DNA of 32,000 nt from assembly GCF_001017655.1 (NCBI RefSeq), contig NZ_CP010904.1, positions 2,280,001-2,312,000 of the forward strand, written 5' to 3'. Below, piece by piece: positions 4,813 through 32,000 of this stretch. This DNA is from Kiritimatiella glycovorans. Lineage in GTDB: Bacteria; Verrucomicrobiota; Kiritimatiellia; Kiritimatiellales; Kiritimatiellaceae. The notes under the pieces were generated by a model. That model saw only the letters and a program-made list of their open reading frames with translations, was not told the DNA's origin and did not search any database. The position numbers were made by a program, and so were the translations under genes. The number at the start of each line of letters is the position of its first letter. Position 1 is the stretch's first letter.

Positions 4813-4814
4813 TT

Positions 4815-5912: not shown

Positions 5913-5917
5913 GATCG

Positions 5918-8035: not shown

Positions 8036-8129
8036 GTTCCGCGGTCAACCGAGGTTTCTCGCTCCGAACGCCGGCGGTAACGGGTGGGTGTAAGTCGTAC
8101 CGTCCACGGGCCTGGTTTTGGCAGACCGC

Positions 8130-13106: not shown

Positions 13107-13230
13107 CCTCTGCCGCGGATGAACGGACCTCGCCGATCCTACTCGCACTCGCCCCCTCGCAAATCCAGGCGGAGCCATCCCGACTTGCCGCCATCGTCTC
13201 GATCCCGTATAGCCCATCTGGAATCGGCTA

Positions 13231-13304
13231 ACGATAACGGGCGACGAGAACGGCTCACGAGTTGGAAGCGCCTATCGTCGACCGCTCTCGTCGCCCGTTA
13301 TCGT
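13231..13304. repeat. 19-bp perfect-stem hairpin inside the IS66 right end
   Basis: acgataacgggcgacgaga (13231-13249) pairs with tctcgtcgcccgttatcgt (13286-13304) across a 36-nt loop, downstream of the transposase stop. Confidence 0.8.
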
Positions 13305-13439
13305 CAACCGTCCTCTGGGAGAGGGGTACCTGAGTAGTCACCTTATTGTTTTAATCAAACATAACGTCCACGCTCTCCCTCACCTTGACCGTCCGCGGGC
13401 AAGGTGTAGGTGAGTAGCGTGTTGTTGGGCCATTCTGTC

Positions 13440-14432
13440 TCATTGCTGTGTCCGGAGTCCATCCTGTAATTTCTCCGTGATCCGGTCCCGCAGGCTCTTC
13501 GGGGCGAGCACTTTCACGTCGGGCATCCAGGACAGGACCCAGCGTACCAGTTCCTTGCGTCCTGTCGTCTCCAGCCGCATCTCGACACGGCCGTCCCGGC
13601 GCGTTCGGAACTCCTGGGTGGGGTGCCACTGCCGTTCGGTGATGTACACGGCCAGTTTCGGCTCGAAAAGCAGCCGGACCTTGATCGGCTTCTCGCCGCC
13701 CACGATGCCGAACGCCTGCCGGGCGTATGTCTCGGGGCTGAACTCGGCCGCTCGCGTGTAACCCTGTCCCGTCGCCGCGATCCGCCGGAACCGCGACAGG
13801 GCGAACGTCGCCACACGCCCCTTCTCCGCGTTCCACGACATCAGGTACCAGTTCCCATGGTAGGCGAGCAGGTGGTAGGGGTGCAGTTCGTACTCGGATA
13901 CGCGCCCGTCGAAGGTCTGGTACGTCGCCCGGACCGCCTCGCAGCGTTCCACGCATCCAGCCAACTTCGCCCATACATCGGGATCGATCCGCACCCGGTC
14001 CTCGGGCAGGACGCCGACGTGCTCACTGAGCCAGTCGGGTTCGATGGTCACATCGCCCTCCAGCGACTCGGCAATTTTATCCAGCACCGAGCGCATGTCC
14101 AGGTGGAGTGGTGTGTCCTCGTAATGGGCCAGGAGCTTGCGGGCAAGCGCGAAGCTGAACGCCTCCCGGCGGCTGATCCGCACCGGTGGCAACATGTAGG
14201 TTTCGTCCGTGAGCCGGAAACCATGCCGGGCCTCGTCGTAGGCCAGCGGGGCGTTCTCCTCGTCGCGCAGGAAGTCCAGATCCCGCGCCACGGTCCGGCG
14301 CGACACCTCGAACTCCTTCATGAAGTCGCTGCTGTTCGGCAGATAGCCGGTCTCTGCGCCCTCGCGCACCATCTGGACCATGCGCCGGATGCGGTAATAC
14401 TGGGGTCTGGAGCCTGCCTTCATTTTTCTCAA
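13440..14432 (-). CDS. WYL-domain transcriptional regulator (wHTH-WYL-WCX architecture)
   Basis: 330 aa. The N-terminal wHTH is FEVSRRTVARDLDFLRDE. The literal WYL motif sits in LLAYHGNWYLMSWN, and the C-terminal extension is ELVRWVLSWMPDVKVLAP. Confidence 0.85.
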   Translation of the reverse strand: MRKMKAGSRPQYYRIRRMVQMVREGAETGYLPNSSDFMKEFEVSRRTVARDLDFLRDEENAPLAYDEARHGFRLTDETYMLPPVRISRREAFSFALARKLLAHYEDTPLHLDMRSVLDKIAESLEGDVTIEPDWLSEHVGVLPEDRVRIDPDVWAKLAGCVERCEAVRATYQTFDGRVSEYELHPYHLLAYHGNWYLMSWNAEKGRVATFALSRFRRIAATGQGYTRAAEFSPETYARQAFGIVGGEKPIKVRLLFEPKLAVYITERQWHPTQEFRTRRDGRVEMRLETTGRKELVRWVLSWMPDVKVLAPKSLRDRITEKLQDGLRTQQ

Positions 14433-14488
14433 ACTTTCTTCAGGGGTATGCCGTTAGATGACACACCCTCTTTTATACATTGGGCGGC
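14433..14488. promoter_or_regulatory. 56-bp divergent intergenic region between the WYL regulator and the transposase
   Basis: Both genes must start transcription within or next to this segment, which contains ttttatacat. It is conserved in copy 2 (30858-30913). Confidence 0.45.
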
Positions 14489-15868
14489 ATGGTGGATCAA
14501 GTCTATCGTCCGCGCCGGCCCAAGGCATCGCCCCTGTGGCAATGCCTTTCCGGGCATTTCGACGCGTTTCTGGAGCTATACGAGGAACAATACCAGCCCC
14601 GGTACGGCTTCCTGCGCCCCATCATCCCGGAGGTCGTCAACAAGTTCCTCGACTGCGGCGACCTGGAGCGCGGCTTCGCCCGCGTGCGCTGCGACGACTG
14701 CAAGCATGAATACCTGCTCGCCTTCTCCTGCAAAGGGCGCTGGTTCTGCCCCTCGTGCCACCTGCCTGCGCCGAAGCGGCTTCGGCAGGCAGGCCAGAAG
14801 AAAGTCCAGCTCTTCGGCGCGCTTGTCACCGAGACCATCCTGTTCCCAGTACCCCACCGGCACTTCACCTTCGCCCTGCCCAAGATGTTGCGCATCTACT
14901 TCCGCCACGACCGCGATCTGCTCAAAGACCTGTGCCGGATCGCCCACGAGTGCCTGCTCGAATACCTGCGCACCACGCTCAATCTAACCGAGGGCCTGCC
15001 CGGCATCGTCATGGCGATCCACACCTTCGGCGAATACCTGGACTTCCACCCGCACCTGCACGCACTCGTTGCCGACGGCCTGTTCGTGCGCTCGGGCCTG
15101 TTCTATGTCCTGCCCGATGTCAGCCTCAAGCCGCTGGAGGAATTGTTCCGGGCTCGGGTCATCACGTTTCTGGTGGACAAGGGGCTTCTGCCGCCCGAGC
15201 GGGCGAACATGCTGCGCGGCTGGGTACATTCCGGGTTCAACGTGCATCGCAGCCGACGCGTGCTGCCCGACGAGCGTGAAGACCTGGAGCGTCTGGCCCA
15301 GTACATCATCAGGAACCCCTTCTCCGTCGAGAAAATGCAGGTCAACCCGTCCGGCGGGACGATCTTGTACCGCTCCGGCATGAACCCGAAGATCCGGCGC
15401 AACTTCGAGGTCTTCACCCCCTGCGACTTCATAGCGGCGATAACCCAGCACATCCCGGACAAGAGCTTCCAACTCGTCCGCTACTACGGATGGTACTCCA
15501 ACAAGATGCGCGGCCAGCGGGACAAACAGGCCGCCGAAGAGGCAAAGGCGCCAGGCCAGGCCGTGCAGATCATCGATGTATCCGACCACAAGCCGCGACG
15601 CATCCCGTCACCGAAATGGCGCGAACTCATCAAGAAAGTCTGGGAAGCCGATCCGCTGCTGTGTCCGCGCTGCGCCCACGAGATGCGGATTGTTTCGCTT
15701 ATCGACGACCGCGCCGTCATCGAACAAATCCTCCGGCACCTCGGTTTGTGGGAAGAAGGGGTCCGGGTGCATACCGGCGCGGATCCGCCAACGGCCACGG
15801 TCGTCGAGCCCTGGCTCGATGACCCGTTCCCCGACTACGACACCGTACCCGTGTTGTTCGCGAACTGA
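14489..15868 (+). CDS. IS91-family Y2 HUH transposase
   Basis: The zinc-binding N-terminus is VRCDDCKHEYLLAFSCKGRWFCPSCH. The HUH motif is FHPHLHALV, and the two-tyrosine region is VRYYGWYSN. The C-terminal zinc ribbon is CPRCAHEM and the tail is HLGLW. The ATG at 14489 is preferred over the TTG at 14480. Confidence 0.85.
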   Translation: MVDQVYRPRRPKASPLWQCLSGHFDAFLELYEEQYQPRYGFLRPIIPEVVNKFLDCGDLERGFARVRCDDCKHEYLLAFSCKGRWFCPSCHLPAPKRLRQAGQKKVQLFGALVTETILFPVPHRHFTFALPKMLRIYFRHDRDLLKDLCRIAHECLLEYLRTTLNLTEGLPGIVMAIHTFGEYLDFHPHLHALVADGLFVRSGLFYVLPDVSLKPLEELFRARVITFLVDKGLLPPERANMLRGWVHSGFNVHRSRRVLPDEREDLERLAQYIIRNPFSVEKMQVNPSGGTILYRSGMNPKIRRNFEVFTPCDFIAAITQHIPDKSFQLVRYYGWYSNKMRGQRDKQAAEEAKAPGQAVQIIDVSDHKPRRIPSPKWRELIKKVWEADPLLCPRCAHEMRIVSLIDDRAVIEQILRHLGLWEEGVRVHTGADPPTATVVEPWLDDPFPDYDTVPVLFAN

Positions 15869-15922
15869 GGCCATCGTGATGGGGGAGGTTTATATCTTTC
15901 CGCCCGAAAACATCCCAAACGT

Positions 15923-15970
15923 GCTGCCTCCGGTCGGTCCGGCCCCGGGGCCGGACCGACCGGAGGCAGC
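15923..15970. repeat. 48-nt perfect palindrome, candidate IS91-type end structure
   Basis: gctgcctccggtcggtccggcccc|ggggccggaccgaccggaggcagc forms a 24-bp perfect stem, 55 nt after the transposase stop. Confidence 0.85.
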
Positions 15971-16080
15971 CAAACCCCGGAGCTTGACGTCCACCCCCGA
16001 TTTTGCCACCCTCGCACCATGAAAGCGACACGATCAGCCAGCCTCGGACCTCAACAGCGGCCCCTCACCGGGAACCGCCT

Positions 16081-16794
16081 AAAAAGCAATTTCTTATCAA
16101 GGCCAATATCCCTAATTTAATTTACGAAACAACGATTTCGACGAATTGGGTGAACTGCCCGAACCACACGATGCCCGGAGAGACCTGCACCAATCAGACT
16201 CTGGTTGTCGTCACAAACTCCACCGCAATCGGTGGAGGAGTCATTTTCTATCGCACCTCAGCCAGTTCTGATGTCGATACCGATTCTGACGGCCTCGACA
16301 ATGTCACAGAATACGATCTGGGCACGGATTATCAGAACTCCGATAGCGATGGGGACGGAATGCCGGACGGATGGGAAGTTCAGTACGGATTTAATCCTCT
16401 TTATTATGCCGACGGCGGGTTCGACTATGACTCAGACGGCCTGATCAATGCCGACGAATATTTAAACGGAACATACCCCAACGACACAGACTCGGAAGAT
16501 GACGGTATGCCTGATGGCTGGGAAGTTGCCGGAGGCCTTGATCCGTTGACCGACGATACAAACGGTGACCCGGACGGCGATGGAGTCAACAATCTGGCTG
16601 AATATCAGGGCGGGACTCATCCGCAAATTGCTAACGTCTCGCCTCCCGGCGGTTCTCAGGGAAGCCTGATTTTCCGCTACGATGATGACGGGCGACTGAT
16701 CGAATCGCACCTGAACAACAGTTCGTCCGAACTGTACACACTGACCCCGGCACATAACGTAACGAACTTGAATGTTTTTTCTACAAGCAACTGA
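16081..16794 (+). CDS. thrombospondin type-3 (Ca-binding) repeat protein with a terminal YD repeat; probably 5'-truncated
   Basis: Repeated DxDxDGxxDxxE units are present (DTDSDGLDNVTE, DSDGDGMPDGWE, DYDSDGLINADE, DSEDDGMPDGWE, DPDGDGVNNLAE), followed by LIFRYDDDGRLIES. The reading frame stays open leftward into the GC-rich IS91 end. No SD-preceded start exists; the first AT-rich-zone ATG is 16171. Confidence 0.6.
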   Translation, partial: KKQFLIKANIPNLIYETTISTNWVNCPNHTMPGETCTNQTLVVVTNSTAIGGGVIFYRTSASSDVDTDSDGLDNVTEYDLGTDYQNSDSDGDGMPDGWEVQYGFNPLYYADGGFDYDSDGLINADEYLNGTYPNDTDSEDDGMPDGWEVAGGLDPLTDDTNGDPDGDGVNNLAEYQGGTHPQIANVSPPGGSQGSLIFRYDDDGRLIESHLNNSSSELYTLTPAHNVTNLNVFSTSN

Positions 16795-16816
16795 TTGAGA
16801 GGTACATATAAATGAA

Positions 16817-18160
16817 GGTTCTTTCTCGAATTTTGTGGATGAAAGCGTGAGACATCGCCCCAGATCTGCGCAAATGGTTGTGAACGCAATCATATACAGC
16901 AGGAGGAAGCGATGTCTCAGAAGTCATTGTTCACAGATTTGCTCGGGATTCAAGGATGGGGCGTAGTCGCCGGTGGAATTCGTATCGAGGAAGATGGCAG
17001 TGTGACGGTTCGAATCGATCGACGCAGTGTTGGTTACAGCTGTGGTCAGTGCGGGGAGGGGCTGTTGTTCACATACGACACGCAGCCACCGCGACGGATC
17101 CGGGACTTCCCGATCTGGGGCCGACAGTGCTACTTGGAAGTCGAGTTCGTCCGTGTGGATTGCCCTCGTTGCGGCGTGGTCATCGAGGGCTTGGACTGGG
17201 TTGAACGGTATGCTCGCCAGACCGTCCGTTATGAGAAGTACGTGGCAGGCTTGTGCGATCTGCTGCCAGTCAGCGATGTGGCCGCCCTGGAGGGCCTGAG
17301 TAAAGATGCCGTTTACCGAATGGACAAGAAGTGGCTGCAACGGCGTGATGCCAAGCGAGAGGAGCGCACGGTGCGATATCTGGGGATCGATGAGATCTCG
17401 CTGCGCAAGGGGCACCGCTACGCCACGGTTTTCTATGACTTGGAGCGCAAGGAGGTGATCGGCTTGGTAAAGACACGCAAGGAGCGCGCTGTGGGCGGGT
17501 TCTTCCGCTGCTTCGGTCGCAAGCGCTGCAAGGCTGTCGAGGCCGTGTGCATGGACCTCTGGCAGCCCTTCCTGAACAGCGTCCGACGGCACTGCAAGAA
17601 CGCCGTCGTTGTCTTCGATAAGTTCCATGTCTACAAGTACCTCAGTGATGCCATTGAGGCCGTACGTCGCCACGAGCAGTCCATATGCTCTGACGAAGAG
17701 GGCAAGCTGATCAAGGGCACGCGCTGGCTCTGGCTCAGGGCCTCACGCAACCTGAAGCGCAAACACAAACAGACTCTCGAACAGATCATGGCAATCAACC
17801 GACAATTACAGAAAGCGTACCTGCTCAAGGAGGACTTCGAGGCGTTCTACGCGTGCTCGACACGCGAAGAGGCCGAAGCCTTCCTGAAGGGGTGGATCAA
17901 GCGGTGTAAGCAGAGCCGGCTGGAGCCATTCATCAAGCTCGCCAAGCGCCTGGTCCGGTGGTCGCACGGCATCTTCTCCTACTTCGAATATCGCATCACC
18001 AACGGCGTGGCCGAGGGCATCAACAACAAAATCAAAGTACTCAAACGCAGGAGCTATGGCTTCCACGATGAGCACTACTTCTTCCTCAAAATACTCAATG
18101 CAACTGGAGCCCTACCCAGCTTCGAGCAACTCAGTGACCCACAATTTTAGCGAAAGAACC
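16817..18160 (+). mobile_element. ISL3-family insertion sequence (1344 bp)
   Basis: The IRs are ggttctttctcgaattttgtgg (16817-16838) and the reverse complement of 18139-18160, ggttctttcgctaaaattgtgg (18/22). A perfect 8-bp direct repeat TAAATGAA lies at 16809-16816 and 18161-18168. Confidence 0.9.
16912..18150 (+). CDS. ISL3-family transposase
   Basis: 412 aa. Has the N-terminal zinc-finger CGQCG...CPRCG and LGIDEISLRKGHRYATVFYDL. Also VCMDLWQPF, FDKFHV and GVAEGINNKIKVLKRRSYGF. Confidence 0.9.
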   Translation: MSQKSLFTDLLGIQGWGVVAGGIRIEEDGSVTVRIDRRSVGYSCGQCGEGLLFTYDTQPPRRIRDFPIWGRQCYLEVEFVRVDCPRCGVVIEGLDWVERYARQTVRYEKYVAGLCDLLPVSDVAALEGLSKDAVYRMDKKWLQRRDAKREERTVRYLGIDEISLRKGHRYATVFYDLERKEVIGLVKTRKERAVGGFFRCFGRKRCKAVEAVCMDLWQPFLNSVRRHCKNAVVVFDKFHVYKYLSDAIEAVRRHEQSICSDEEGKLIKGTRWLWLRASRNLKRKHKQTLEQIMAINRQLQKAYLLKEDFEAFYACSTREEAEAFLKGWIKRCKQSRLEPFIKLAKRLVRWSHGIFSYFEYRITNGVAEGINNKIKVLKRRSYGFHDEHYFFLKILNATGALPSFEQLSDPQF

Positions 18161-18163
18161 TAA

Positions 18164-21100
18164 ATGAATAACCGAATGCTCACTATTCTCGGAGTGGTTT
18201 TTTCTCTCGGCACGGCCTATGCCGGGATGGATTCTATCGGAGGATGGCATGCCGTTGGCAGTGACAACTCTTGTTTTGTCAGTAATGCGGCATCTCAGAT
18301 TTTGGCTGAACCAATGGTGTTATCCACCATGGAAAGTGGCGGCAGCGTACTTCCGGAAATGGCAATCACGGAGGCCATTCGGTCCCAGGCTGCAGCATTA
18401 AATAATGATCCTGTTGAAATTTTTGAGTTTGTTCGCAACCGGATTGGCTACGAGCTTTATTACGGTTGTTTTAAAGGTGCAGAAGGAACGCTGTTGAGCG
18501 GGTTTGGAAATGATTTGGATCAATGCGCTTTGCTGGGATCTTTGCTCAAGGTGGCGGACGATTCGATTGATGTCAGTTATGTTCGCGGAAATGTAATTTA
18601 TACGGGTGAGTTTTTAACGAATCTCACGGGTTGCCCAACGAACCATTTCCAACATTTGAACCCATGGTTTTTGATTCATGCGCCTGTACAGCGAGCTGAT
18701 GGGTGGGAATTCGATAAACATTACTGGCTTCAGGCGGAGATTGACGGAACAACCTATCAGCTGGATCCTTCGTTTGTACCGCATGAGTCCGCTCCCGAGG
18801 ATGCGGAAACTGTGCTGGCACAAGTCACTGGCTATACGCGAACCAATTTTTTAAGTACCGCATCGAATGGAGCCACTGTTTTTACTTCCGAACAGGTCCA
18901 AAATGTAAATGAGACAGCAGTCGAAAATCTTTTGCGTGGCTACGTGGCGCAGGTTCATCAGGCCCAAAATGATGGCGATTCTGAGGTTGAACAACTTGTC
19001 GGGCAGCGCATGCCTCAAAGTGAACCTCTTTCGGTTCTCAGCACGAATCTGCCACCGGACATGGTTCGGGTTGCGTCCTCCAGTGTATTGGGCAGCTTAC
19101 CAGACAATATGTTTGCCCGCTATGAGCTGACGCATGAATCGGGTTTCAGTTCTGTTGCTTTGAAGGGGTATGAGCTGGCAGGGAAACGGATCACGATTTT
19201 TTATGATTCCGATGATGGGAACAGGCCGGTTCTTCGACTGGATGGAGAGGAAAAGGCCCGCGGAACAACGGCATTAACGGTTGGGTATGTTAAGAATCTC
19301 ACCCTTAAAGTACTTCTGCCTTCGTTTTTTGGAATGTATGAGAAGGCCAATGCAAACAAGCCATGTGATTTGACCGTTGGTTACAGCTATAGTGTGGTTT
19401 CAGACCTCCTAATGGCTTCTCCAAAAGTGCTGGCGCGAGAGAGCCGTAAACTGGCGGCTTTCCGGTCACAGGGCTTAAGCGACGCTTCGGAAGAAGTGCT
19501 TGGAACCACGTTGCACCTGATGAATCTATTTTACTGTCGTCAGAACACGTTGCAAAACAAGCTTCTGAGTCGTCTGACCGGAATTCCGTCGCTGGGGCTT
19601 TTCCAGGGCGGAGTTGTGGCTCAGGAGGAAGGCTATTATATTGACCTGCCGTTGCTTGGAATGTCTTACGTAATGCAGATGCCGGATTCCTCGTCATTGT
19701 TTCAAGCCTCGTCGTTCATGGCCAGCGGTTTGGAGCATGGGATGCTGGAGCAGATCATGGGACCTGAGCGTCCGGGAATTTCTTCAACGAAGGGCATTGC
19801 ATTGAATAATGCAAACGGGAAGCACACGTATTATGCGACCTCTGCAAACTGGACCTCCGGCCTGAACGTTAAGTCCAAGCTTTCCGGCTATACTCCGGCT
19901 CAAAAAACCGATTTAGGCACTGAAATCAATAAGGGATACAGGATGGTGCTTCCACGAAATGCAGTGACGGTCGGTAATTGGACGGGAATCACTTATTTCA
20001 AGGTTTATTCACAGGCTCTGGGTGCGATTATTTCAGGAGCCTACGGCACCCAGAACGGGGGTTATTCAGGTTATCAGGGATATGTGCCGCCGCCGGTTGT
20101 TAATACGGTCACTCGAACCACGTACATTCCGCCCCCGCCGCCTCCTATTCAGCTTTTCCGCCCCAAAAGCATCGAGCCGGTTGATCTCTATTCCGGCGAC
20201 TATCTTCTGGATCACAAGGACTTAACATTATCCGGCCCGTTACCGTTGATTCTTAACCGTCATTATAACAGTGGGCAGGTTGCCGCAGATGGAGTGATGG
20301 GGCCGGGCTGGTGCCATTCACTTCAAATCGAAATCGACGAACACAGTAGCGGCGATTTTGCTTTTGGCGAACGAGACACGGCTGATGCCGCCGCCGTTTT
20401 AGCCGCCCAAATGATCGCGTTGGATCTGATGCGTAATGAAGACAACGCGAAAGGCTGGACGACGGCTGCCATTGCTGCAAAATGGGCTCTGGACTCCGCC
20501 GTGGAAAATACAATTACCGTTCGAATCGGCGAATCCGGAAGACAATTCACGCGCCTGCCTGATGGGGAATTCAATCCGCCCCCTGGATCAACAGATAAAC
20601 TGATACAAACAAACGGCGTTTATATTTTACAGGAACGGAATGCCAACAAGTATACGTTCAACACCAACAATCTGATTGCCGAAATTGCGGATACAGACGG
20701 AAACACGCTTACGTTTACTTACAATGCACAGACCAACCTGCAAAGCGTTGTCAGCAGTTTTGGGCCGACCCTCTCTTTCAGTTATACCGGCGGGTTGCTG
20801 ACGAGCGTGAGCGATAACTCGACGCCGACCCGCACCATTCAATACCAATATGATTCCAGCGACAACCTGACGAACTTTGTGGATGCCGTCGGGTTTGACT
20901 GGGGAATCGCCTATAGCGACACAAACCATCCGAGCGCAATTACTTCGCTAACCGATCCAGAAGGCATTACCACTATTCAGAACTTTTACAATTCCCTTGG
21001 TGTTGTGACTCAGCAGATATCCGCAACATCCAATATTTGGAAATTTCACACATCCAATGCCCAGAGCATCGAAGAAGATCCCGCTGGACGAAAGACAATC

Positions 21101-24100: not shown

Positions 24101-24139
24101 ACAACCCATGGACACACAACAACAGGATATTTGAAATGA
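18164..24139 (+). CDS. Rhs/YD-repeat polymorphic toxin with Sec signal peptide and N-terminal transglutaminase-like domain
   Basis: The signal peptide is MNNRMLTILGVVFSLGTAYA|G. A transglutaminase-like triad pattern is present: Cys121 in GNDLDQCALLG, His186 and Asp201 in HYWLQAEIDGTTYQLDPS. After a Pro-rich linker the shell begins at VDLYSGDYLLDHKDLTL (about 20155). Dozens of YDxxGN repeats follow, then an Rhs core ending DINPLAFVDPLGL (23588-23602). Confidence 0.9.
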   Translation: MNNRMLTILGVVFSLGTAYAGMDSIGGWHAVGSDNSCFVSNAASQILAEPMVLSTMESGGSVLPEMAITEAIRSQAAALNNDPVEIFEFVRNRIGYELYYGCFKGAEGTLLSGFGNDLDQCALLGSLLKVADDSIDVSYVRGNVIYTGEFLTNLTGCPTNHFQHLNPWFLIHAPVQRADGWEFDKHYWLQAEIDGTTYQLDPSFVPHESAPEDAETVLAQVTGYTRTNFLSTASNGATVFTSEQVQNVNETAVENLLRGYVAQVHQAQNDGDSEVEQLVGQRMPQSEPLSVLSTNLPPDMVRVASSSVLGSLPDNMFARYELTHESGFSSVALKGYELAGKRITIFYDSDDGNRPVLRLDGEEKARGTTALTVGYVKNLTLKVLLPSFFGMYEKANANKPCDLTVGYSYSVVSDLLMASPKVLARESRKLAAFRSQGLSDASEEVLGTTLHLMNLFYCRQNTLQNKLLSRLTGIPSLGLFQGGVVAQEEGYYIDLPLLGMSYVMQMPDSSSLFQASSFMASGLEHGMLEQIMGPERPGISSTKGIALNNANGKHTYYATSANWTSGLNVKSKLSGYTPAQKTDLGTEINKGYRMVLPRNAVTVGNWTGITYFKVYSQALGAIISGAYGTQNGGYSGYQGYVPPPVVNTVTRTTYIPPPPPPIQLFRPKSIEPVDLYSGDYLLDHKDLTLSGPLPLILNRHYNSGQVAADGVMGPGWCHSLQIEIDEHSSGDFAFGERDTADAAAVLAAQMIALDLMRNEDNAKGWTTAAIAAKWALDSAVENTITVRIGESGRQFTRLPDGEFNPPPGSTDKLIQTNGVYILQERNANKYTFNTNNLIAEIADTDGNTLTFTYNAQTNLQSVVSSFGPTLSFSYTGGLLTSVSDNSTPTRTIQYQYDSSDNLTNFVDAVGFDWGIAYSDTNHPSAITSLTDPEGITTIQNFYNSLGVVTQQISATSNIWKFHTSNAQSIEEDPAGRKTIYRFDLKGRTVETQAADGNSTFRRYNERDQVTNSVNAAGVTNLLVYDNSLNLVEKRESAGTSEERVSVYGYDASNRLVCISNQLSATEWQVSRFEYDSEHHVTKTTDALSNETTFVYYPSGLLQQKSEGNGLRVTSYTYDSYGNPDTVISTDSGTNDFLYNARGELLQHTDSRGQTTETTYDASGNLLLTEFSDGTTVSNSYWNNGLLKTVTDARGHTTHYTYTPAYKQKTITAPDGGVVSNAYDAADRLVSVTDAKGNVVSNLLDDVGRTIASYSTLTTRQFAYDKAGNITNSVIDPSGLNLWDHTAYDDFSRPVSKSTPLATETFQYDPLGRMTNRIDQISKHWKTEFDPLSRPIASVRPSGAREESDYNALSFRTQFRNAEGNVISFGVDAQSRVTSITNAIGNVTRYQFDNNGNLTNRTDAAGRSTAYIFDGMNRIDRVEYPDMTQSVFDHDASGNLILSSNENAEITFAYDTMNRLSEADVSLRSLSSFAVTNSCDLNGNRTNILYPGGLSVSYSFDEENRLESVTANHANFANEFSFGYDGASRLTNIVYPNSVVSAFEYDAENRIVGFTHGTFCEHAIQRDVRGFKIREDIYEGLVPNFTNNLHQTLTHNDADQLVSDGLDSYAYNNNGCLTNTAGAEYQWDYNDHLTSVNGTEYLYDASGARIGRIWGGVTNYFILDYHAPLKMPLAEANADGSITRYYVWSSHGLLAHFDRNPATGAITSTRYYHANEQKSVLALTDETGSVTDRFAYSPYGQVLGRTGTTDTPYQWIGGLAVRNEGGGLYFMLNRYYSADVRRFLSIDPAGIDSFPNLYAYADINPLAFVDPLGLWQVTIGAAYGYGGRVTFGKNNGRWNVGGAVGYGLGAMIDFAPGNSAPAFASQGEASHVGVEVSGGAKLLNALDVSGGLRVRVDADDATNVEGRGGLIGSLTIPGTIINANGSADVVVQGNISQKTSDSFLEASPEPTSFGFGAMVFGGITGGTSWQSKPPQGSSPSTTHGHTTTGYLK
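23603..24136 (+). other. Rhs C-terminal toxin domain, glycine-rich, family unassigned
   Basis: This is the 178 aa after DPLGL. It is Gly-rich with glycine-zipper-like runs (GAAYGYGG, VGGAVGYGLGAM, GFGAMVFGGITGG). I could recognise no nuclease, deaminase or ART catalytic motif. Confidence 0.6.
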
Positions 24140-24519
24140 TTAAATTATCTCCAAAAAGCTGGTGTCTCATAATAATCTGTGTTTTCGGCGGTGCTGTTTT
24201 GGTGACAACAATTTTAAATATGCATGTTTACAAAAGACCCGAAATAGAATACTGCAAAGCTTTTTTAAACAAACAGAAGAATATTTTTCCAACGTCTATT
24301 GGGTCTGTTAAATCCGTTGACTATAGAAAACAAGCCGCAGCAAAAGTGTCATTTAGAAAAGATGGGATTCAGGGGTTCTATTGTTTTGATGTGTCTGGTG
24401 ATACGGGAGAAATAAGGGTTCGCGTACATTGGAATAATACGAAAAACAATGATGATTTTCGAGTTGTTCGGGTTGAGCAGATTCGTGGAAGTGATTACCC
24501 TTTTCAAATTTGGCCGTAG
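24136..24519 (+). CDS. putative cognate immunity protein (N-terminal TM anchor plus small beta-rich domain)
   Basis: 127 aa. The start overlaps the rhs stop (ATGA). A hydrophobic helix is CLIIICVFGGAVLVTTIL. The role is assigned from its position immediately 3' of the toxin. Confidence 0.6.
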   Translation: MIKLSPKSWCLIIICVFGGAVLVTTILNMHVYKRPEIEYCKAFLNKQKNIFPTSIGSVKSVDYRKQAAAKVSFRKDGIQGFYCFDVSGDTGEIRVRVHWNNTKNNDDFRVVRVEQIRGSDYPFQIWP

Positions 24520-24536
24520 GAAAAAGGAGAACGACT

Positions 24537-26369
24537 GTGTTAAGTCGAACCCGCTATCAGTTTGATAATAACGGGAACCCAACCAATCGAATTGATTCCA
24601 TGAGCCGTTCCACCGGCTATGTTTTTGATGACATGAACCGGATGGTTCGGATTGATTATCCGAATGCAACACAGGCCGGTTTCGACCACGACAACAACGG
24701 AAACGTAACACTCTTCTTCAATGAGAATGCAGAGGTTGCTTTTGCATATGATGAGATGAACCGACTCGCCGCTTCGACCCAATCTGTGTCTTCTGTGAAT
24801 TTTGTGGTTCAAAATTCGTTCGATTTGAACGGCAATCGAACAAACATCACCTATCCGGGTGGCCTTGTTGTCAGTTACTCATTTGATGAGGATAATCGTC
24901 TGACATCGGCTTCCGCTAAAAATGCGAATGGCACATACACCTTTTCTTTCGGATATGATGGAGCATCGCGGTTGACCGGCATTTCCTATCCGAACGGAAT
25001 CAATGCAACGGTTGGTTATGATGCAGAAAGCCGCGTCACCAACTATGTTCACGGAACCGTTTTGAACCACGTAATTACTCGTGATTTGCGAGGTTTCAAA
25101 ACCCGTGAGGATATTTATGCCGGACTGATTCCAAGCTTTACGAATGGCTTGCGCCAGACTCGTGCGCACAACGATGCCGATCAGCTTCTTTCGGCAGGTG
25201 ATGAAGATTACGCCTATGATGCGAATGGAAACCTCACCAACGCCAGCGGAACGACGTATGAATGGGATTATGACAACCGCCTGCTCCGTTTCGGCCACAC
25301 GGAATACAGTTATGATGCTTCCGGTGGACGGGTTGAACGCGTCGAAAATGGAACAACCAACTTCTTCGTGCTCGACTATGCCGATCCCTTGAAACGACCG
25401 CTTGCCGAGGTAGATGGTGCGGGAACTATCACACAATATTATATCTGGAGACCCGCCGGATTATTGGCGCACATTGAGGCAAACGGCGCGGTTTATTATT
25501 ATCACCAAAACGAGCAGGGTTCCACATTGGCGCTCACCGATACCAATGCAGCCGTTGTTGCTCAGTATGCCTACAGCCCGCACGGAGAAATTCTTCAGAA
25601 AACCGGTTCAGTTGAAACGCCCTATACGTTCATTGGCGGCTTCGGCGTACGTGCTGAAAACAGCGACACATACTATATGCTCAATCGCTACTACTCCGTT
25701 TCTCAGCGCCGCTTCCTTTCGATCGACCCCGCTGGCATCGACAGTTTTGCCAACCTCTATGTTTACGGGAACCTGAATCCTTTGTTTGGCGTAGACCCAA
25801 CTGGGTTGTTGACCGTTTTCGTTCATGGAACCTATTCGGACAGCTCGACGTTTAATCAGGCTACGAGAAATATTTATGCGGAAACATTTAATGATCAAAA
25901 TCAAATTTCATTTGAGTGGAGCGGCATGAACAACACCCTTGCAAGAAAAATTGCAGGGCGGCGACTGGCAGGAAATATTAACGAATACCGCACACAGTAT
26001 CCAAATGAACCCATAACCATTGTTTCCCATAGTCACGGAGGAAATGTTGCATTTGAGGCCAGTAAACGAGCTGGCATTGACAATCTGGTTACGCTAGGAA
26101 CCCCAGCAAGGACATTTACTCACAATCCGAACGAGTCCAATATTGGTGAGTGGTACAATGTCTATTCCCATGGGGACAAGGTTCAGGTTTCAGGTGGCGG
26201 TTTGTTCCAGCCTTTTTTCCAGGAAGCAGGTCCGGCAGGTCGTACATTTAGTGGTGCCCATAACATTGAAACAAAGCACTCTTCTGGATGGGTACAAACA
26301 CACCTTGATCTCACAGGACGCGTGGGTGCTGATGCCGTCGGAAACTACATGAATAGGCCTGCAAAATGA
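24537..26369 (+). CDS. orphan Rhs C-terminal module with alpha/beta-hydrolase (lipase/esterase-like) toxin domain
   Basis: It is collinear with, and by eye about 60% identical to, residues encoded by 22322-23602 of the main rhs. The Rhs core ends at GVDPTGL (25794-25808). The CT carries VFVHG and the nucleophile elbow VSHSHGG. AAGGAG (24524-24529) lies 7 nt before GTG 24537; the track lists a TTG at 24510. Confidence 0.8.
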   Translation: MLSRTRYQFDNNGNPTNRIDSMSRSTGYVFDDMNRMVRIDYPNATQAGFDHDNNGNVTLFFNENAEVAFAYDEMNRLAASTQSVSSVNFVVQNSFDLNGNRTNITYPGGLVVSYSFDEDNRLTSASAKNANGTYTFSFGYDGASRLTGISYPNGINATVGYDAESRVTNYVHGTVLNHVITRDLRGFKTREDIYAGLIPSFTNGLRQTRAHNDADQLLSAGDEDYAYDANGNLTNASGTTYEWDYDNRLLRFGHTEYSYDASGGRVERVENGTTNFFVLDYADPLKRPLAEVDGAGTITQYYIWRPAGLLAHIEANGAVYYYHQNEQGSTLALTDTNAAVVAQYAYSPHGEILQKTGSVETPYTFIGGFGVRAENSDTYYMLNRYYSVSQRRFLSIDPAGIDSFANLYVYGNLNPLFGVDPTGLLTVFVHGTYSDSSTFNQATRNIYAETFNDQNQISFEWSGMNNTLARKIAGRRLAGNINEYRTQYPNEPITIVSHSHGGNVAFEASKRAGIDNLVTLGTPARTFTHNPNESNIGEWYNVYSHGDKVQVSGGGLFQPFFQEAGPAGRTFSGAHNIETKHSSGWVQTHLDLTGRVGADAVGNYMNRPAK

Positions 26370-26728
26370 AAAAATTATTAATGGAATCTCTGATTGCTGG
26401 GGCTGTTTTACTCGGACTTATATCACTGTTGAATGTTCTTGTTATACCCCTCGTGTTTTCATCTTTGTATGCTATCAATAGCTTAGCGGTTACGTTTTAT
26501 ACCTTTCTCATAACAGCCCCTATTGCTTTTATTTTTGGGTTCTTTGTATGGTGGATATTTTCGAAGCTTCGATTGCCATGGAGATGCGTTCTGGTTGGGT
26601 TCTTTTTTTCAATCTACGTCTTTTTCAACGTAAAATTCTACCCCATGGAAAAGGTAAATAAGGAGGATAGGCTACCTACTTTTGAAGAAGTTCTGCGCAA
26701 GCCAGAGGGCGAGTTCAATGAGTTTTAG
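26366..26728 (+). CDS. putative immunity protein, polytopic membrane protein
   Basis: 120 aa. The start overlaps the orphan stop (ATGA). Three or four hydrophobic segments are visible (AGAVLLGLISLLNVLVIPLVF, FLITAPIAFIFGFFVWWIF, VLVGFFFSIYVFF). Confidence 0.6.
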   Translation: MKKLLMESLIAGAVLLGLISLLNVLVIPLVFSSLYAINSLAVTFYTFLITAPIAFIFGFFVWWIFSKLRLPWRCVLVGFFFSIYVFFNVKFYPMEKVNKEDRLPTFEEVLRKPEGEFNEF

Positions 26729-26735
26729 GAAAAGA

Positions 26736-26815
26736 GTGTCAGGTTTCACCAAACCTTGGAACCCCGATCGACCCGGCGCAACCGAGCAATTTATCTATGA
26801 CGCTCTTGGAAACCT
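26736..26815 (+). pseudogene. vestigial third rhs fragment
   Basis: Manual translation gives ...VSGFTKPWNPDRPGATEQFIYDALGNL, a YD-repeat unit. It is cut off at 26815, where the duplicated mobile-element fragment begins. Confidence 0.5.
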
Positions 26816-26971
26816 GTTACCGACCAAATTGATGTCGTAGAGCGTTGCCAAATTAAAACGGTATGATTTCGGCGGATTCCCACGCTGTGACTGTATAAAT
26901 GTTCCCACTTGCGTCATAGGCTTGTTTCAGGTTTACGATGTCGCTGGCCCGATAAAAAATGACCGCACCGG
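26815..26971 (+). repeat. 157-bp direct repeat, copy A (period 854 bp)
   Basis: Identical by eye to 27669-27825 except for one substitution (tttcgg vs ttttgg). Confidence 0.9.
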
Positions 26972-26988
26972 TTTTTGCCGGTGCGGTC
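26952..26988 (-). terminator. rho-independent terminator (potentially bidirectional)
   Basis: The hairpin is gaccgcaccgg-tttttg-ccggtgcggtc (26961-26988). It is preceded by an A-run on the + strand (a T-run for the minus strand) and followed by gtattgtttt. It lies 18 nt beyond the stop of the minus-strand ORF ending at 27006. Confidence 0.7.
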
Positions 26989-27005
26989 GTATTGTTTTCC
27001 GGGGT

Positions 27006-27317
27006 TTACGATGCCTGCGGCCTGCCTGTGCGTCGCACGCAGACAGGCTGTTTGAATGCCTCCAGTTTATCCATGGCCTGGCTGAAGCTCATGCCCATGA
27101 CGCGGGTGAGCAGGTCGATGGCGTTACCGCCGGTTCCGGTGTCCGGGCAGACCCAGTAGGTTTCTTTGATGACGATGTCTGCGGGCAGGTCGTAAACTCT
27201 CCAGTTGCCGTTTGTGAGCTCCTGCATGGGATAACCCATTTGTTCGAGCAGGGGCGCGAGTGCGACGCGCCGGGCTGTGCGGATTTGTTCGTCGGTCCAT
27301 TTATTGCGTAACGTCAT
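27006..27317 (-). CDS. small conserved protein of a transposon/Mu-like module, function unknown
   Basis: 103 aa starting MTLRNKWTDEQIRTARRVALAPLLEQMGY, with GGNAIDLLTRVMGMSFSQAMDKL, which resembles primase-type zinc-binding-domain proteins. It overlaps the ATPase fragment stop by 17 nt. Confidence 0.45.
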   Translation of the reverse strand: MTLRNKWTDEQIRTARRVALAPLLEQMGYPMQELTNGNWRVYDLPADIVIKETYWVCPDTGTGGNAIDLLTRVMGMSFSQAMDKLEAFKQPVCVRRTGRPQAS

Positions 27318-27725
27318 GTTCTTTCCTCCAATGCGGCTGCATGAGGACGCGGTTGACCTGTTCGAGGCCGACTTCGCGTTTTCGGTCGCGGACGGTTTCG
27401 AGCAGGGAGCCGACGCAGAGGTTGCGCACGCGGCGCAGGACGCCTTCGGAGGTGCGTACGACAAGTGCGAGCGCATCGTCGGTGAAGACGGCGTGCGGCA
27501 GTCCGCAGCGGTCGAGCTGATCGCGGATGAAGGTTTTAACGTCGTCGGGCGCGAGGGGCTTGAGGTGCACCGAGTAGGTGATGCGGCTTCGGATGTCGTC
27601 GTTAATGCCGAGGCGCAGTTTGTGGATGAGCGGGGGCTGGGCGATGAGCAGCAGGTTGTGCGATTTGGTGTTACCGACCAAATTGATGTCGTAGAGCGTT
27701 GCCAAATTAAAACGGTATGATTTTG
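27301..27725 (-). pseudogene. 5'-truncated AAA+ ATPase of ExeA/TniB-like transposition-helper type
   Basis: Only the C-terminal part is present: ...NLLLIAQPPLIHKLRLGINDDIRSRITYSVHLKPLAPDDVKTFIRDQL...GVLRRVRNLC. There are no Walker A/B motifs. The upstream end lies inside repeat copy B. Confidence 0.6.
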
Positions 27726-27825
27726 GCGGATTCCCACGCTGTGACTGTATAAATGTTCCCACTTGCGTCATAGGCTTGTTTCAGGTTTACGATGTCGCTG
27801 GCCCGATAAAAAATGACCGCACCGG
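27669..27825 (+). repeat. 157-bp direct repeat, copy B
   Basis: See copy A. It ends in the left arm of the terminator hairpin and is fused directly to the hsdM fragment. Confidence 0.9.
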
Positions 27826-28237
27826 GATTTTCTATGCCCAGGGCGTAAAGGCCAATGTGCTCTTCTTCGACCGCAAACCCGCGCAGGAAAAGCCGTGGAC
27901 GGAGAAGCTGTGGATCTACGATCTGCGCACCAACATGCACTTTACCCTCAAGACCAATCCGCTCAAGCGCGCCGACCTCGATGATTTCGTGAATTGTTTC
28001 AATTCCGACAACCGACATGACCGCAAAGAATCCGAACGCTTCAAATGCTTCAGCTACGACGAACTGGTGAAACGCGATAAGGCCAACCTCGACATCTTCT
28101 GGCTCAAGGATGAATCGCTCGAAGATTCCGCCAATCTGCCGGACCCCGATGTGATCGCCCTCGAAATCACCGAAGACCTCGAAGCCGCCCTGGAACAGTT
28201 CGCCACCATCGCCGAGGATTTGAATAAAAGCGACTGA
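27821..28237 (+). pseudogene. hsdM: 3' fragment of type I restriction-modification methyltransferase
   Basis: TGIFYAQGVKANVLFFDRKPA...WIYDLRTNMHFTLKTNPL...FSYDELVKRDKANLDIFWLKDESLED is the conserved HsdM C-terminus. The N6-methylase catalytic region is absent, and no hsdS or hsdR is present. Confidence 0.8.
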
Positions 28238-28265
28238 GCAATTTTAATTCAGGGAAGGTTGACCC

Positions 28266-29696
28266 CTAAATTCTTTCCGGCGTTTCGATGCCGAGCAGCG
28301 AGAGGCCCTTTTTCAGGATGGCGGCTGTGAGGGTGCACAGGCGGATGCGGCTTTCGCGCGGGCCTTCGTCGGCTCTGAGGAAGGGGACGTTCTGGTAGAA
28401 GGAGCTGTAGGCCTGACTCAGATCGTAGAGGTAGTCGGCCATGACGCTGGGGCGGTGCAGCCGCGCGGCGGTTGCAACGGCGGCGGGGAAGCGCGTGAGT
28501 TTGAGCGCGAGGCGGCGTTCCTGCTCTTCGGTCAGAATGATCGGGAAGTCGTCGGGATTCGTCTCCGGGAATTTTTCGGCGTACTTGTCACGAACCGAAG
28601 CGATGCGCGCGTAGGCGTATTGCAGGTAGGGCGCGGAGTTGCCGTCCATGGCGAGTGCTTTTTCCCAGGTGAAGGTGACGAGGCTCTGCGGGTTCTGGCT
28701 GAGGTCGGTGTATTTGATGGCGCCGATGCCGACGGCGCGGGCGACTTCTTTCTGCTGCGCTTCGTCCATGTCGGGGCTGGAGGCTTTGACGACGTCGAGG
28801 GCGCGGGCCTCGGCTTCGTCGAGCAGCGCTTCGAGTTTAATGACGTTGCCTTCGCGGGTGGAGAAGGTGGCCTCGGGCAGGCGCATGAGGCCGAACCAGA
28901 CGTGGGTAAGTTTGGTTTCGATGCCGAGCTGTTTGCAGATGTGGAAGAACTGTTTGAAGTGGAGCTGCTGGCGTTCGTCGGTGACGTAGATGATTTCCGA
29001 AGGTTGGAACTCTTCGGTGCGTGAAATGACAGTGGCGATGTCGGTGGTGGTGTAGTTGTAGCCGCCGTCGGATTTGCGGACGATGGCCACGGCGAGGCCG
29101 TCGTCTTCGAGGTTGCAGATGAGCGCTCCGTCGGACTCTCCGCAGAGTTTTTTCTCTTCGAGCTGTTCGATGACTTTGGCGAGGTCGTCGTTATAAAAAC
29201 TTTCGCCGCGGTAGAGGTCGAAGGAGACGTCGAGGCGTTTGTAGATCCTGTTGAATTCGCCGAGGGTGAGTTCGATGAATGTTGACCAGAGTTTGCGGTT
29301 TTCGGGGTCACCTTTCTGGAGTTTTACGAGCTCGGCTTTGGCGCGGTCGCGCCAGGTGTCGTCGTCTTTGGAGCGGTTGTAGCTTTCCACGTAGATGCGT
29401 TCGAGCTCTTCGACCGGCGCGGTCTTTAATGCTTCCTGATCGGCGAATTCGCGGTAGCCGAGGATGATGAGGCCGAACTGGGTGCCCCAGTCGCCGAGGT
29501 GATTGTCGGCAATGACGTTGTATCCGAGGGCGCGATAGAGGCGGTCGATGGCATTGCCGATGACGGTGGAGCGGATGTGGCCGATGTGCATCGGCTTGGC
29601 GACGTTGGGGCTGGAGTAGTCGATGATGACGGGTTTGCCGTTTCCAATGAAGAGGCGAGTTGCCCACAGCCATGCGACCGTCTCCGACGAGTTCAA
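28266..29696 (-). pseudogene. argS: arginine--tRNA ligase lacking the N-terminal (Add-1) domain; probably a 5'-truncated copy
   Basis: The catalytic core is clear: SSPNVAKPMHIGHIRSTVIGN, NHLGDWGTQFG, and an anticodon-binding tail ending ETPERI. The HIGH motif sits at residue about 36, versus about 120-130 in canonical ArgRS. The frame has a TAG six codons upstream of the TTG at 29696. Confidence 0.6.
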
Positions 29697-29832
29697 TGAC
29701 CCATTCTCGACGGTCGCAGACTATGGACTACTCGCCGGAGTTGTGGCAGAACACTCGCAGGAAGCGGGAGCCCTGATGCTGACTTAAAGTTCGAAAACAC
29801 TGGCTCCGCTATCGGGACCACCGCTTATTGTT

Positions 29833-30857
29833 TCATTGCTGTGCTCGTAGTCCATCCCGAAGCTTTTCCGCGATCCGAGCCCGCAGGCTCTTCGGGGCGA
29901 GCACTTTCACGTCGGGCATCCAGGACAGGACCCAGCGTACCAGTTCCTTGCGTCCTGTCGTCTCCAGCCGCATCTCGACACGGCCGTCCCGGCGCGTTCG
30001 GAACTCCTGGGTGGGGTGCCACTGCCGTTCGGTGATGTACACGGCCAGTTTCGGCTCGAAAAGCAGCCGGACCTTGATCGGCTTCTCGCCGCCCACGATG
30101 CCGAACGCCTGCCGGGCGTATGTCTCGGGGCTGAACTCGGCCGCTCGCGTGTAACCCTGTCCCGTCGCCGCGATCCGCCGGAACCGCGACAGGGCGAACG
30201 TCGCCACACGCCCCTTCTCCGCGTTCCACGCCATCAGGTACCAGTTCCCATGGTAGGCGAGCAGGTGGTAGGGGTGCAGTTCGTACTCGGATACGCGCCC
30301 GTCGAAGGTCTGGTACGTCGCCCGGACCGCCTCGCAGCGTTCCACGCATCCAGCCAACTTCGCCCATACATCGGGATCGATCCGCACCCGGTCCTCGGGC
30401 AGGACGCCGACGTGCTCACTGAGCCAGCCTGCCACGGCGTAGCCGAAGGCGAAGACGGGTCCGGTTCGATGGTCACATCGCCCTCCAGCGACTCGGCAAT
30501 TTTATCCAGCACCGAGCGCATGTCCAGGTGGAGTGGTGTGTCCTCGTAATGGGCAAGGAGCTTGCGGGCAAGCGCGAAGCTGAACGCCTCCCGGCGGCTG
30601 ATCCGCACCGGTGGCAACATGTAGGTTTCGTCCGTGAGCCGGAAACCATGCCGGGCCTCGTCGTAGGCCAGCGGGGCGTTCTCCTCGTCGCGCAGGAAGT
30701 CCAGATCCCGCGCCACGGTCCGGCGCGACACCTCGAACTCCTTCATGAAGTCGCTGCTGTTCGGCAGATAGCCGGTCTCTGCGCCCTCGCGCACCATCTG
30801 GACCATGCGCCGGATGCGGTAATACTGGGGTCTGGAGCCTGCCTTCATTTTTCTCAA
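29833..30857 (-). pseudogene. WYL-domain regulator, frameshifted
   Basis: It is split into track ORFs 30234..30857 and 29833..30435. A 32-nt insertion at about 30427-30458, relative to copy 1, breaks the frame. Confidence 0.85.
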
Positions 30858-30913
30858 ACTTTCTTCAGGGGTATGCCGTTAGATGACACACCCTCTTTTA
30901 TACATTGGGCGGC

Positions 30914-31774
30914 ATGGTGGATCAAGTCTATCGTCCGCGCCGGCCCAAGGCATCGCCCCTGTGGCAATGCCTTTCCGGGCATTTCGACGCGTTTCTGGAG
31001 CTATACGAGGAACAATACCAGCCCCGGTACGGCTTCCTGCGCCCCATCATCCCGGAGGTCGTCAACAAGTTCCTCGACTGCGGCGACCTGGAGCGCGGCT
31101 TCGCCCGCGTGCGCTGCGACGACTGCAAGCATGAATACCTGCTCGCCTTCTCCTGCAAAGGGCGCTGGTTCTGCCCCTCGTGCCACCTGCCTGCGCCGAA
31201 GCGGCTTCGGCAGGCAGGCCAGAAGAAAGTCCAGCTCTTCGGCGCGCTTGTCACCGAGACCATCCTGTTCCCAGTACCCCACCGGCACTTCACCTTCGCC
31301 CTGCCCAAGATGTTGCGCATCTACTTCCGCCACGACCGCGACCTGCTCAAGGACCTGTGCCGTCTGGCGCACGAGTGCCTGCTCGAATACCTGCGCACCA
31401 CGCTCAATCTAACCGAGGGCCTGCCCGGCATCGTCATGGCGATCCACACCTTCGGCGAATACCTGGACTTCCACCCGCACCTGCACGCACTCGTTGCCGA
31501 CGGCCTGTTCGTGCGCTCGGGCCTGTTCTATGTCCTGCCCGATGTCAGCCTCAAGCCGCTGGAGGAATTGTTCCGGGCTCGGGTCATCACGTTTCTGGTG
31601 GACAAGGGGCTTCTGCCGCCCGAGCGGGCGAACATGCTGCGCGGCTGGGTACATTCCGGGTTCAACGTGCATCGCAGCCGACGCGTGCTGCCCGACGAGC
31701 GTGAAGACCTGGAGCGCCTGGCCCAGTACATCATCCGCAACCCCTTCGCCGTGGAGAAGATGCAGGTCAGCCCG
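30914..31774 (+). pseudogene. IS91-family transposase, 3'-truncated
   Basis: It matches copy 1 through ...NPFAVEKMQVSP, about 287 of 459 aa. It then reads into unrelated sequence. The RYYGWYSN tyrosine motif and the C-terminal zinc ribbon are lost. Confidence 0.85.
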
Positions 31775-32000
31775 CCGAACCGAGCCAATCTCGTCAACGA
31801 CAACTACATGGCCCCGTCGGCGACAACTACACTTCCCCATGTTGACGGGGCTGGTGGGCCCCGGGTTTCCGGGGTTTGAGGGCGATGGGCCGATAGGCCC
31901 GAGCCTTCCCCCTCCCACCCCGCAGGGGCACCCCCCATGGGGGGTGCGCGATTCTCACAATTGCGATTTTCATCGTTTTCGATTCCGTTCGCCCGCCTTC

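Follow-up and report, generated by a model that had tools for sequence, protein, structure and literature searches.

Two copies of an IS91-family insertion sequence (IS) associated with a WYL-type regulator gene lie in the same orientation on either side of an Rhs toxin array in Kiritimatiella glycovorans (RefSeq assembly GCF_001017655.1, contig NZ_CP010904.1). The question raised by this locus is whether the pair and the island between them make up a mobile unit. We addressed it in a stretch of 32,000 nucleotides (contig positions 2,280,001 to 2,312,000, forward strand), here called the window, whose own numbering is used throughout. A sequence-only reading had proposed either a composite element or cargo captured by one-ended rolling-circle transposition. 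In our analysis the arrangement is ordinary IS clutter, and both proposals are unsupported: the locus probably holds one live IS91-WYL element and one dead sister copy, brought in by independent insertions and partly homogenised by gene conversion, within an IS-rich variable region with an Rhs array. The copies would be two separate members of one IS lineage, forming no compound mobile unit, in a region rich in IS (IS66-like, IS91 and ISL3) that also contains the Rhs toxin array and gene debris.

The window was studied by blastn self-comparison, pairwise alignment, windowed G+C, Pfam and NCBIfam profiles, folding of single-stranded DNA (ssDNA) with z-scores, and ratios of nonsynonymous to synonymous substitution rates (dN/dS). 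A scan of one genome per species provided 78 related loci with transposase relatives (designated L002, L006 and so on), whose titles indicate mostly metagenome-assembled genomes of Kiritimatiellia, Lentisphaerae and Verrucomicrobiota. The closest transposase among them is 85% identical.

The two copies form a direct repeat with patchwork identity

By blastn, 13436-14034 matched 29829-30427 (97.8%) and 14034-15353 matched 30459-31777 (98.8%), both on the + strand. Exact pairwise alignment of copy 1 (13436-15353) with copy 2 (29829-31777) confirmed a direct repeat with 28 substitutions and a 32-bp insertion, 98.5% identical overall; 1.9 kb at 98.5% is not a chance resemblance. Alignment and gene content identify both units as related IS91/WYL copies in direct orientation, as the sequence-only reading had it. 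The limits that it gave for them (13437-16078 and 29824-31774) did not stand: the repeat stops at 15353, nothing 3' of that position in copy 1 (15354-16078 included) has a counterpart in copy 2 within the window, and the element itself spans 13363-16099. The copies are 13.7 kb apart, and the interval that recombination between them would involve is 16.4 kb.

The substitutions had been described as denser near both ends of an otherwise near-identical pair, and the alignment bears this out in a sharper form, with three patches: 12 substitutions fall in 13439-13486, 6 in 14917-14944 and 7 in 15292-15345, and the identical runs between the patches measure 351, 786 and 347 bp. When the substitutions were placed at random 100,000 times, not one placement was as clustered (P<1e-5). 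Divergence reaches 13-25% in the terminal patches, where the alleles of copy 2 are those typical of other lineages. In the middle patch L005 and L078 match copy 2 at 97.6% identity and copy 1 at 85.4%, and both alleles of the variable sites are found in other family members. Because the substitutions are clustered and both alleles recur in the family, we infer that the patchwork is the signature of gene conversion among diverged copies rather than of a duplicate drifting apart. Patchwork identity of this kind shows that the copies have in all appearance already taken part in homologous recombination, either with each other or with other genomic copies. Their near-identity would then be partly secondary, gene conversion having evened out some 1.8 kb, with the original divergence surviving in short patches.

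An alternative is that copy 2 arose recently as a partial duplication of copy 1 13436-15353, through segmental duplication or abortive transposition, and later acquired the insertion and patches imported from third copies. The identity of 98.5% between the copies fits such an origin, since no database relative exceeds about 88% at the DNA level. The terminal patches, with their strong divergence and other-lineage alleles, would nevertheless call for extra conversion anyway, and the left boundary of copy 2 is a recurrent boundary of the family, which suggests arrival as an element. We consider a recent duplication unlikely.

Copy 1 is a complete IS91-family element

Copy 1 is a complete IS91-family element with a WYL regulator gene (13363-16099, + strand, 2737 bp), its ends being fixed by alignment with relatives. 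The left start, AACGYCCACGC, is shared by 6 independent copies (copy 1, L004, L005, L018, L019 and L078), and the DNA further left is unrelated among them; the right end, ...AAAGCGATTTCTTATCA (at 16099 in the window; terminus TTCTTATCA), is common to 15 copies, again with unrelated DNA beyond it. At the left end lies a terIS-like hairpin (13363-13426; -22 kcal/mol when folded as ssDNA, z = -5.1) that is missing in copy 2 and that L018 forms with the same stem from a different sequence. The right end begins with a 48-nt perfect palindrome 3' of tnpA (15923-15970), detected as an opposite-strand self-match (-35.9 kcal/mol, z = -7.2), whose stem the relatives keep at the same place with differing sequences. 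It is followed by the oriIS-like terminus (16057-16099), which alignment of 15 right ends and folding resolve into a small subterminal stem and the conserved AAAAGCAATTTCTTATCA. The two ends are dissimilar to each other and have no terminal inverted repeats.

Two genes, both full length against their relatives, occupy the element. The transposase gene tnpA (14489-15868, + strand) is intact and encodes 459 aa from a conserved ATG, with the Pfam domains Y2_Tnp (PF04986, 2.5e-22) and Zn_Tnp_IS91 (PF14319, 6.2e-14) and a score of 171 bits against the NCBIfam model transpos_IS91 (NF033538; cutoff 125). An HPHLH motif of the HUH type is readable in its translation. Divergently oriented to tnpA is the WYL gene (13440-14423, - strand), and a palindrome, GGGGTATGCC-GTTAGAT-GACACACCC (14443-14468), separates the two. 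Compared with relatives, both genes have dN/dS values of 0.10-0.15, that is, they are under strong purifying selection. Copy 1 is probably active, judging from these features.

No target duplication was found at either of the two complete copies for which both flanks were judged, copy 1 (...CAAACAT / AGGCCAA...) and L005a (...CCGTTC / ATTGTTC...). The tetranucleotides CTTG, GTTC and GTCC were found beside oriIS in 0 of 15 right flanks, all of which begin with A followed by A, G or C (AAT in 8 of the 15). The target preference is thus likely to differ from that of canonical IS91.

Copy 2 is most likely a relic

Copy 2 (29829-31777, + strand, by blastn) is a decayed partial copy. It lacks the left 73 bp of the element, including the hairpin, and, within the window, the whole part of the element 3' of tnpA codon 288 with its conserved right end. 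The 32-bp insertion (30428-30459 in the pairwise alignment), for which no source was found in the window or the related loci, frameshifts the WYL gene and leaves a pseudogene (29833-30848, - strand) split into open reading frames (ORFs) at 29833-30435 and 30234-30857. The first 288 codons of tnpA (30914-31777, + strand) are still in frame up to the breakpoint at 31777, where homology to copy 1 ends. With its left terminus missing, its WYL gene frameshifted and its tnpA broken, copy 2 is most likely the dead relic of a sister copy of copy 1.

The tail beyond the breakpoint (31778-32000) is unrelated to the element. It had no match elsewhere in the window, and metagenome scans for the right junction or for a degenerate tail motif yielded none. 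Within it, the motif GTCAACGACAACTACATGGCCCCGTCGGCGACAAC, with two CGACAACTACA repeats, lies at 31793-31827 and a 20-nt palindrome at 31928-31947; the only match of the motif was L020:1166-1199 (34 bp, 91%, on the other strand), beside gene fragments.

Left ends vary across the family, and one lineage has captured upstream DNA

Left boundaries across the family fall into four classes. In the first the boundary is the outer hairpin, and in the second, which has no hairpin, it is found immediately beyond the stop codon of the WYL gene (copy 2, L002, L020, L007 and L072). The third class starts within the WYL gene, at about codon 161 (L006 and L024), and the fourth comprises WYL-less copies that start at the intergenic palindrome or at most 19 bp from it (L005b, L006a, L008, L012 and L021). 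The palindrome is thus also a left boundary, and three copies start exactly at its first base; besides being an operator, it may be an inner or ancestral termination site.

Only the helix-turn-helix (HTH) half of the WYL gene is kept in L006 (codons 1-161, in two copies), L024 (8-163) and L019 (1-183 and 2-193). The breakpoint near codon 161-163 occurs in two distant lineages, and may represent a recurrent boundary or else a functional form without the sensor domain.

In L006 a 2548-bp unit is present twice (L006:2788-5335 and L006:10784-13329), the two being 97% identical with flanks that differ on both sides. The unit consists of 374 bp from the start of a sulfatase gene, WYL codons 1-161, tnpA and the right end. 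It is direct evidence, for the family rather than for the window, that this lineage is able to pick up DNA from upstream, as happens in one-ended transposition of IS91.

Does the pair move the island?

In elements of this type tnpA has terIS on its upstream side and oriIS on its downstream side (PMC13181058). Rolling-circle transposition runs from oriIS, the right end, through tnpA towards terIS; if it is not terminated there, DNA past the left end goes along with it (PMC13181058). Since only DNA on the terIS side is co-mobilised, copy 1, whose oriIS faces the island, cannot have captured it. The geometry of copy 2 is the right one, with the island on its left (terIS) side, and the absence of the hairpin terminus is an ISCR-like condition; its oriIS is either absent or outside the window, none being found before the window end. 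Capture in one-ended fashion, as the sequence-only reading had it, was thus not upheld for either copy.

For copy 2 it can still be imagined that, after loss of the hairpin, transfer from the right end ran into upstream DNA, so that the mosaic of gene fragments at 26.7-29.8 kb, or possibly the whole Rhs island, would be cargo, with copy 1 perhaps supplying the transposase. Such cargo would be on the correct side of a copy that has no hairpin; the adjoining mosaic of truncated, unrelated genes of mixed G+C resembles what is found beside ISCR elements; and the sulfatase-fragment unit of L006, present twice, shows the family doing the same. Against this, no oriIS is visible and tnpA is broken at codon 288, neither the 78 related loci nor the metagenome scan showed any of the fragments or junctions next to IS91 copies, and the junctions of the mosaic are unrelated to the IS (the argS homology ends 180 bp away, and a 157-bp duplication lies within the mosaic). 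On balance, capture by copy 2 seems doubtful.

A compound unit running from copy 1 through the island to copy 2 appears far more improbable. It would move either by a rolling circle from an oriIS in copy 2 to the terIS of copy 1 or as a 16.4-kb circle excised by RecA, bearing a hybrid copy with an origin and no terminator. Direct orientation and long identical tracts are what such a unit would need, and on a circle a crossover would in principle set the 3' part of copy 1 tnpA and its oriIS behind the in-frame 5' part of copy 2 tnpA. Of the outer ends, however, copy 1 provides only a left end of terIS type, and copy 2, with tnpA broken at 31777, provides no right end in the window and has lost the left one as well. 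Flanking sequence is unrelated between copy 1 and copy 2. The ISL3 element in the island is an independent insertion with its own 8-bp duplication, and the IS66-like element to the left of copy 1, which has no duplication, points to rearrangement and not to a unit that had been cleanly inserted. Searches of the 78 related loci and of metagenomes turned up none of the junctions a second time. When the IS-masked window was compared with those loci by blastn and tblastx, no shared context and no non-IS match appeared, and neither a related rhs locus nor an empty site was found. The composite element of the sequence-only reading is accordingly not upheld, and the idea of a mobile unit fails on present evidence: the insertions look independent, their flanks are unrelated and nothing found attests co-mobility.

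Shared orientation is seen in every cluster of copies within 10-20 kb (L005, L006, L019 and the window). It probably reflects strand-biased, or local, insertion of the single-stranded intermediate. Because the clusters in L005, L006 and L019 are also uniformly oriented, the orientation in the window needs no compound structure.

We thus return to independent insertions of two members of one lineage. Independence is argued from the ISL3 duplication, from the position of the IS66-like element 21 bp from copy 1 and from the truncation of argS 180 bp from copy 2. Several points weigh against this account. The case for independent insertion is made from anatomy, not from an empty site, as no related genome with the locus was found. 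The window stops 223 bp past the breakpoint of copy 2, so that the rest of this copy could follow an inserted element. The hairpin-less left end, shared with L002, L020, L007 and L072, may have arisen not by decay but as a natural alternative end. Finally, if the sequence came from a metagenome assembly, the patchy identity of the repeat could be partly an assembly effect.

One consequence of the pair does seem plausible. As directly oriented repeats that are identical over as many as 786 bp at a stretch, the copies would be good RecA substrates, and the patchwork shows earlier recombination; deletion of the 16.4-kb interval by RecA might therefore be expected in principle.

The WYL gene is part of the element

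The intact WYL gene encodes a protein of 327 aa with HTH, WYL and WCX domains (Pfam WYL 3.5e-15, WCX 1.4e-18; HTH_11 weak). Among 20 relatives with at least 68% transposase identity and enough upstream sequence, the gene is full in 9, partial in 6 and missing in 5, and it also occurs in five more distant relatives. This distribution indicates that the WYL gene is part of the element.

The palindrome between the WYL gene and tnpA, whose family form is GGGTRTGCC-GTTAGAT-GRCACACCC, is kept in 23/23 regions between WYL and tnpA, even where the WYL proteins are as little as 43% identical. In copy 1 a -10-like TATACA (14474-14479) follows it after 5 bp and the tnpA ATG after 20 bp. The 26-bp palindrome contains a candidate operator, TGCC-N7-GGCA/GACA, in all 23 of these regions. 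From the position of the gene, its conservation and its purifying selection, we infer that the WYL protein is a regulator of the divergent promoters.

The closest solved relatives of the WYL protein are PafB (E = 1.1e-9) and DriD (5.6e-8), the matches ranging from 1e-9 to 6e-8. We do not claim that it is an ssDNA sensor like DriD, as only 3 of 8 contact residues are kept: the equivalents Y168, R176 and Y192 are conserved, and R178, R189, R204, R207 and Y240 are not. A full-text literature search returned no paper linking WYL regulators with IS91 elements; four papers contain both terms, and in none of them does the title or abstract deal with such a link.

A more ambitious picture can be drawn, in which IS91-WYL is a self-regulating, gene-capturing lineage of Planctomycetes-Verrucomicrobia-Chlamydiae (PVC) bacteria. 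The WYL protein would bind the palindrome and gate both transposase expression and the choice between inner termination at the palindrome, giving WYL-less copies, and outer termination at the hairpin. Copy 2 would have dragged in the mosaic on its left and could move the Rhs island with the transposase of copy 1 or after formation of a RecA circle. We regard this picture as speculative and, taken as a whole, decidedly unlikely.

The island and its surroundings

G+C is 0.63 in both copies (0.628 for the element) and 0.508 in 16100-16815; the rhs genes lie at 0.45-0.50 and the fragments on their right at 0.51-0.60. Windowed G+C thus agrees with the abrupt drop reported near 16080; the break seems to fall at 16080 because the element ends in 20 bp of A+T-rich sequence. 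Profile matches likewise bear out the reported content of the island, namely an rhs array, an ISL3 and fragments of unrelated genes.

Abutting the right end of copy 1 is an ORF with TSP3 repeats and no recognisable start (16102-16794, + strand; Pfam TSP3_bac), whose frame continues into the IS. The ISL3 element (16817-18160, + strand), with 22-bp inverted repeats and a transposase matched by Pfam at 7.7e-81, is an independent insertion at the rhs start codon. It is flanked by a perfect 8-bp duplication, TAAATGAA, at 16809-16816 and 18161-18168, which contains the rhs ATG, and it parts the Rhs gene from its upstream region and the TSP3-repeat ORF.

The Rhs array (18164-26728, + strand; Pfam RHS_repeat 3e-64, DUF6531 and Tle3) consists of the main Rhs gene (18164-24139, 1991 aa), a small ORF (24136-24519), an orphan Rhs C-terminal gene with a Tle3-like domain (24510-26369) and a small membrane ORF (26366-26728), all on the + strand. 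It contains an internal repeat, 22322-22539 being 71-74% identical to 24549-24766. A search of 5.8 billion clustered proteins with the N-terminal 700 aa of the main Rhs protein (18164-20263) gave no homologue at E<=1e-10. Look-ups of the exact Rhs, transposase and WYL proteins, the last two with two start codons each, likewise returned no record.

To the right of the array, 26729-29828 is a mosaic of gene fragments recognised by profile and blastn matches. A 157-bp direct repeat (26815-26971 and 27669-27825, 99% identical), which matches the start of an hsdM 3' fragment (27776-28237), brackets a 697-bp piece made up of a partial ORF and the C-terminal half of an ExeA/TniB-like AAA ATPase gene (27301-27668, - strand). 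Next comes argS without about 110 N-terminal codons (28266 to about 29650, - strand) and then 178 bp of unassigned filler (29651-29828). Truncation of argS by copy 2 itself was ruled out: about 180 bp, with stop codons, separate copy 2 from the end of the argS homology.

To the left of copy 1 lies the IS66-like element (10627-13341, + strand), with inverted repeats GTAACTACTCAGGTA and TACCTGAGTAGTCAC and matches to NCBIfam transpos_IS66 (6.5e-97) and Pfam DruA (1.3e-37). A DruA/DUF4338-like ORF (10666-11667) stands upstream of TnpC, in the place usually taken by tnpA/tnpB. An 8-bp target duplication was sought around the element and none was found, which points to a rearrangement there. When the flanks of copy 1 and of the IS66-like element were joined as a test for insertion into one ORF, only 21 A+T-rich bases were found to separate the two.

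To the left of the IS66-like element, a stretch of 57% G+C carries PIN toxin genes, a TrmO-like gene and a methyltransferase gene; core genes (aldolase, hisF/hisH-type and lipB) at 67% lie beyond it. The variable region starts near 4.5 kb, just after the core genes, and copy 1 is inside this region, not at its edge. Repeats of about 170 nt, 76-93% identical, occur at 4660-4830, 5762-5932 and 7143-7313, with a weak fourth near 8057-8117. They lie 1.1-1.4 kb apart between small minus-strand genes (the methyltransferase and two PIN toxins) and have the look of a cassette array. Rfam and tRNA scans of the window were empty, and hence gave no tRNA-type island boundary.

Comparison with known systems

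It is common for a variable Rhs locus to be surrounded by IS copies of one orientation. For the Rhs locus the consequence is that it would in principle be deletable; otherwise the finding is of little import as posed. The element is of more interest, as a well-delimited new member of the IS91 family whose subgroup is apparently undescribed and which is widespread in assemblies of Kiritimatiellia, Lentisphaerae and Verrucomicrobiota. A by-product is a set of correct boundaries for annotators: the termini, the alternative left ends, the WYL gene, the palindrome and the L006 case of capture. IS91-WYL elements also offer a tractable system for the regulation and termination of HUH rolling-circle transposons.

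IS91 and IS801 have one left and two right subterminal palindromes (PMC13181058), and copy 1 has the same layout. It is also like IS91, IS801 and IS1294 in its Zn-binding and Y2_Tnp domains, its HPHLH motif, its dissimilar ends and the absence of a target duplication, and the family resembles them in its variable left ends and in upstream capture (L006). It differs from them in having two nested left boundaries, the outer hairpin and the palindrome beside tnpA, and in its right flanks, which begin A then A, G or C and do not show CTTG, GTTC or GTCC. Where IS91 has the small, co-directional orf121, copy 1 has a 327-aa WYL regulator divergent from tnpA.

The likeness to ISCR elements is one of condition, not of sequence. 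Copy 2 and several relatives have no left terminator, and in L006 a foreign fragment is fused upstream and transposes along with the element, but the NCBIfam model ISCR_clade_Ia gives 123 bits against a cutoff of 925, and no resistance genes are present in the window. The pair also resembles the direct IS repeats that surround islands and serve as RecA substrates, in orientation, in a distance of 16.4 kb and in identity over up to 786 bp, and is unlike them in that one copy is a relic.

DriD and PafBC have the same length and domain order as the WYL protein. The DriD site, CGAC-N7-GTCG, and the candidate operator share a 4+7+4 design, with G+C half-sites of 4 bp and an A+T-rich 7-bp spacer. 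DriD and PafBC are nonetheless chromosomal damage-response regulators, whereas the WYL gene described here is borne by a transposon. PMC13393415, by its title, concerns the control of ISCR transposase genes by LexA. Orf121 of IS91 (PMC13181058) and LexA at ISCR tnpA are element-borne and host examples, respectively, of a regulator at the tnpA promoter region; the WYL gene and the palindrome take the equivalent place, between the left end and tnpA, with an unrelated protein (HTH-WYL-WCX).

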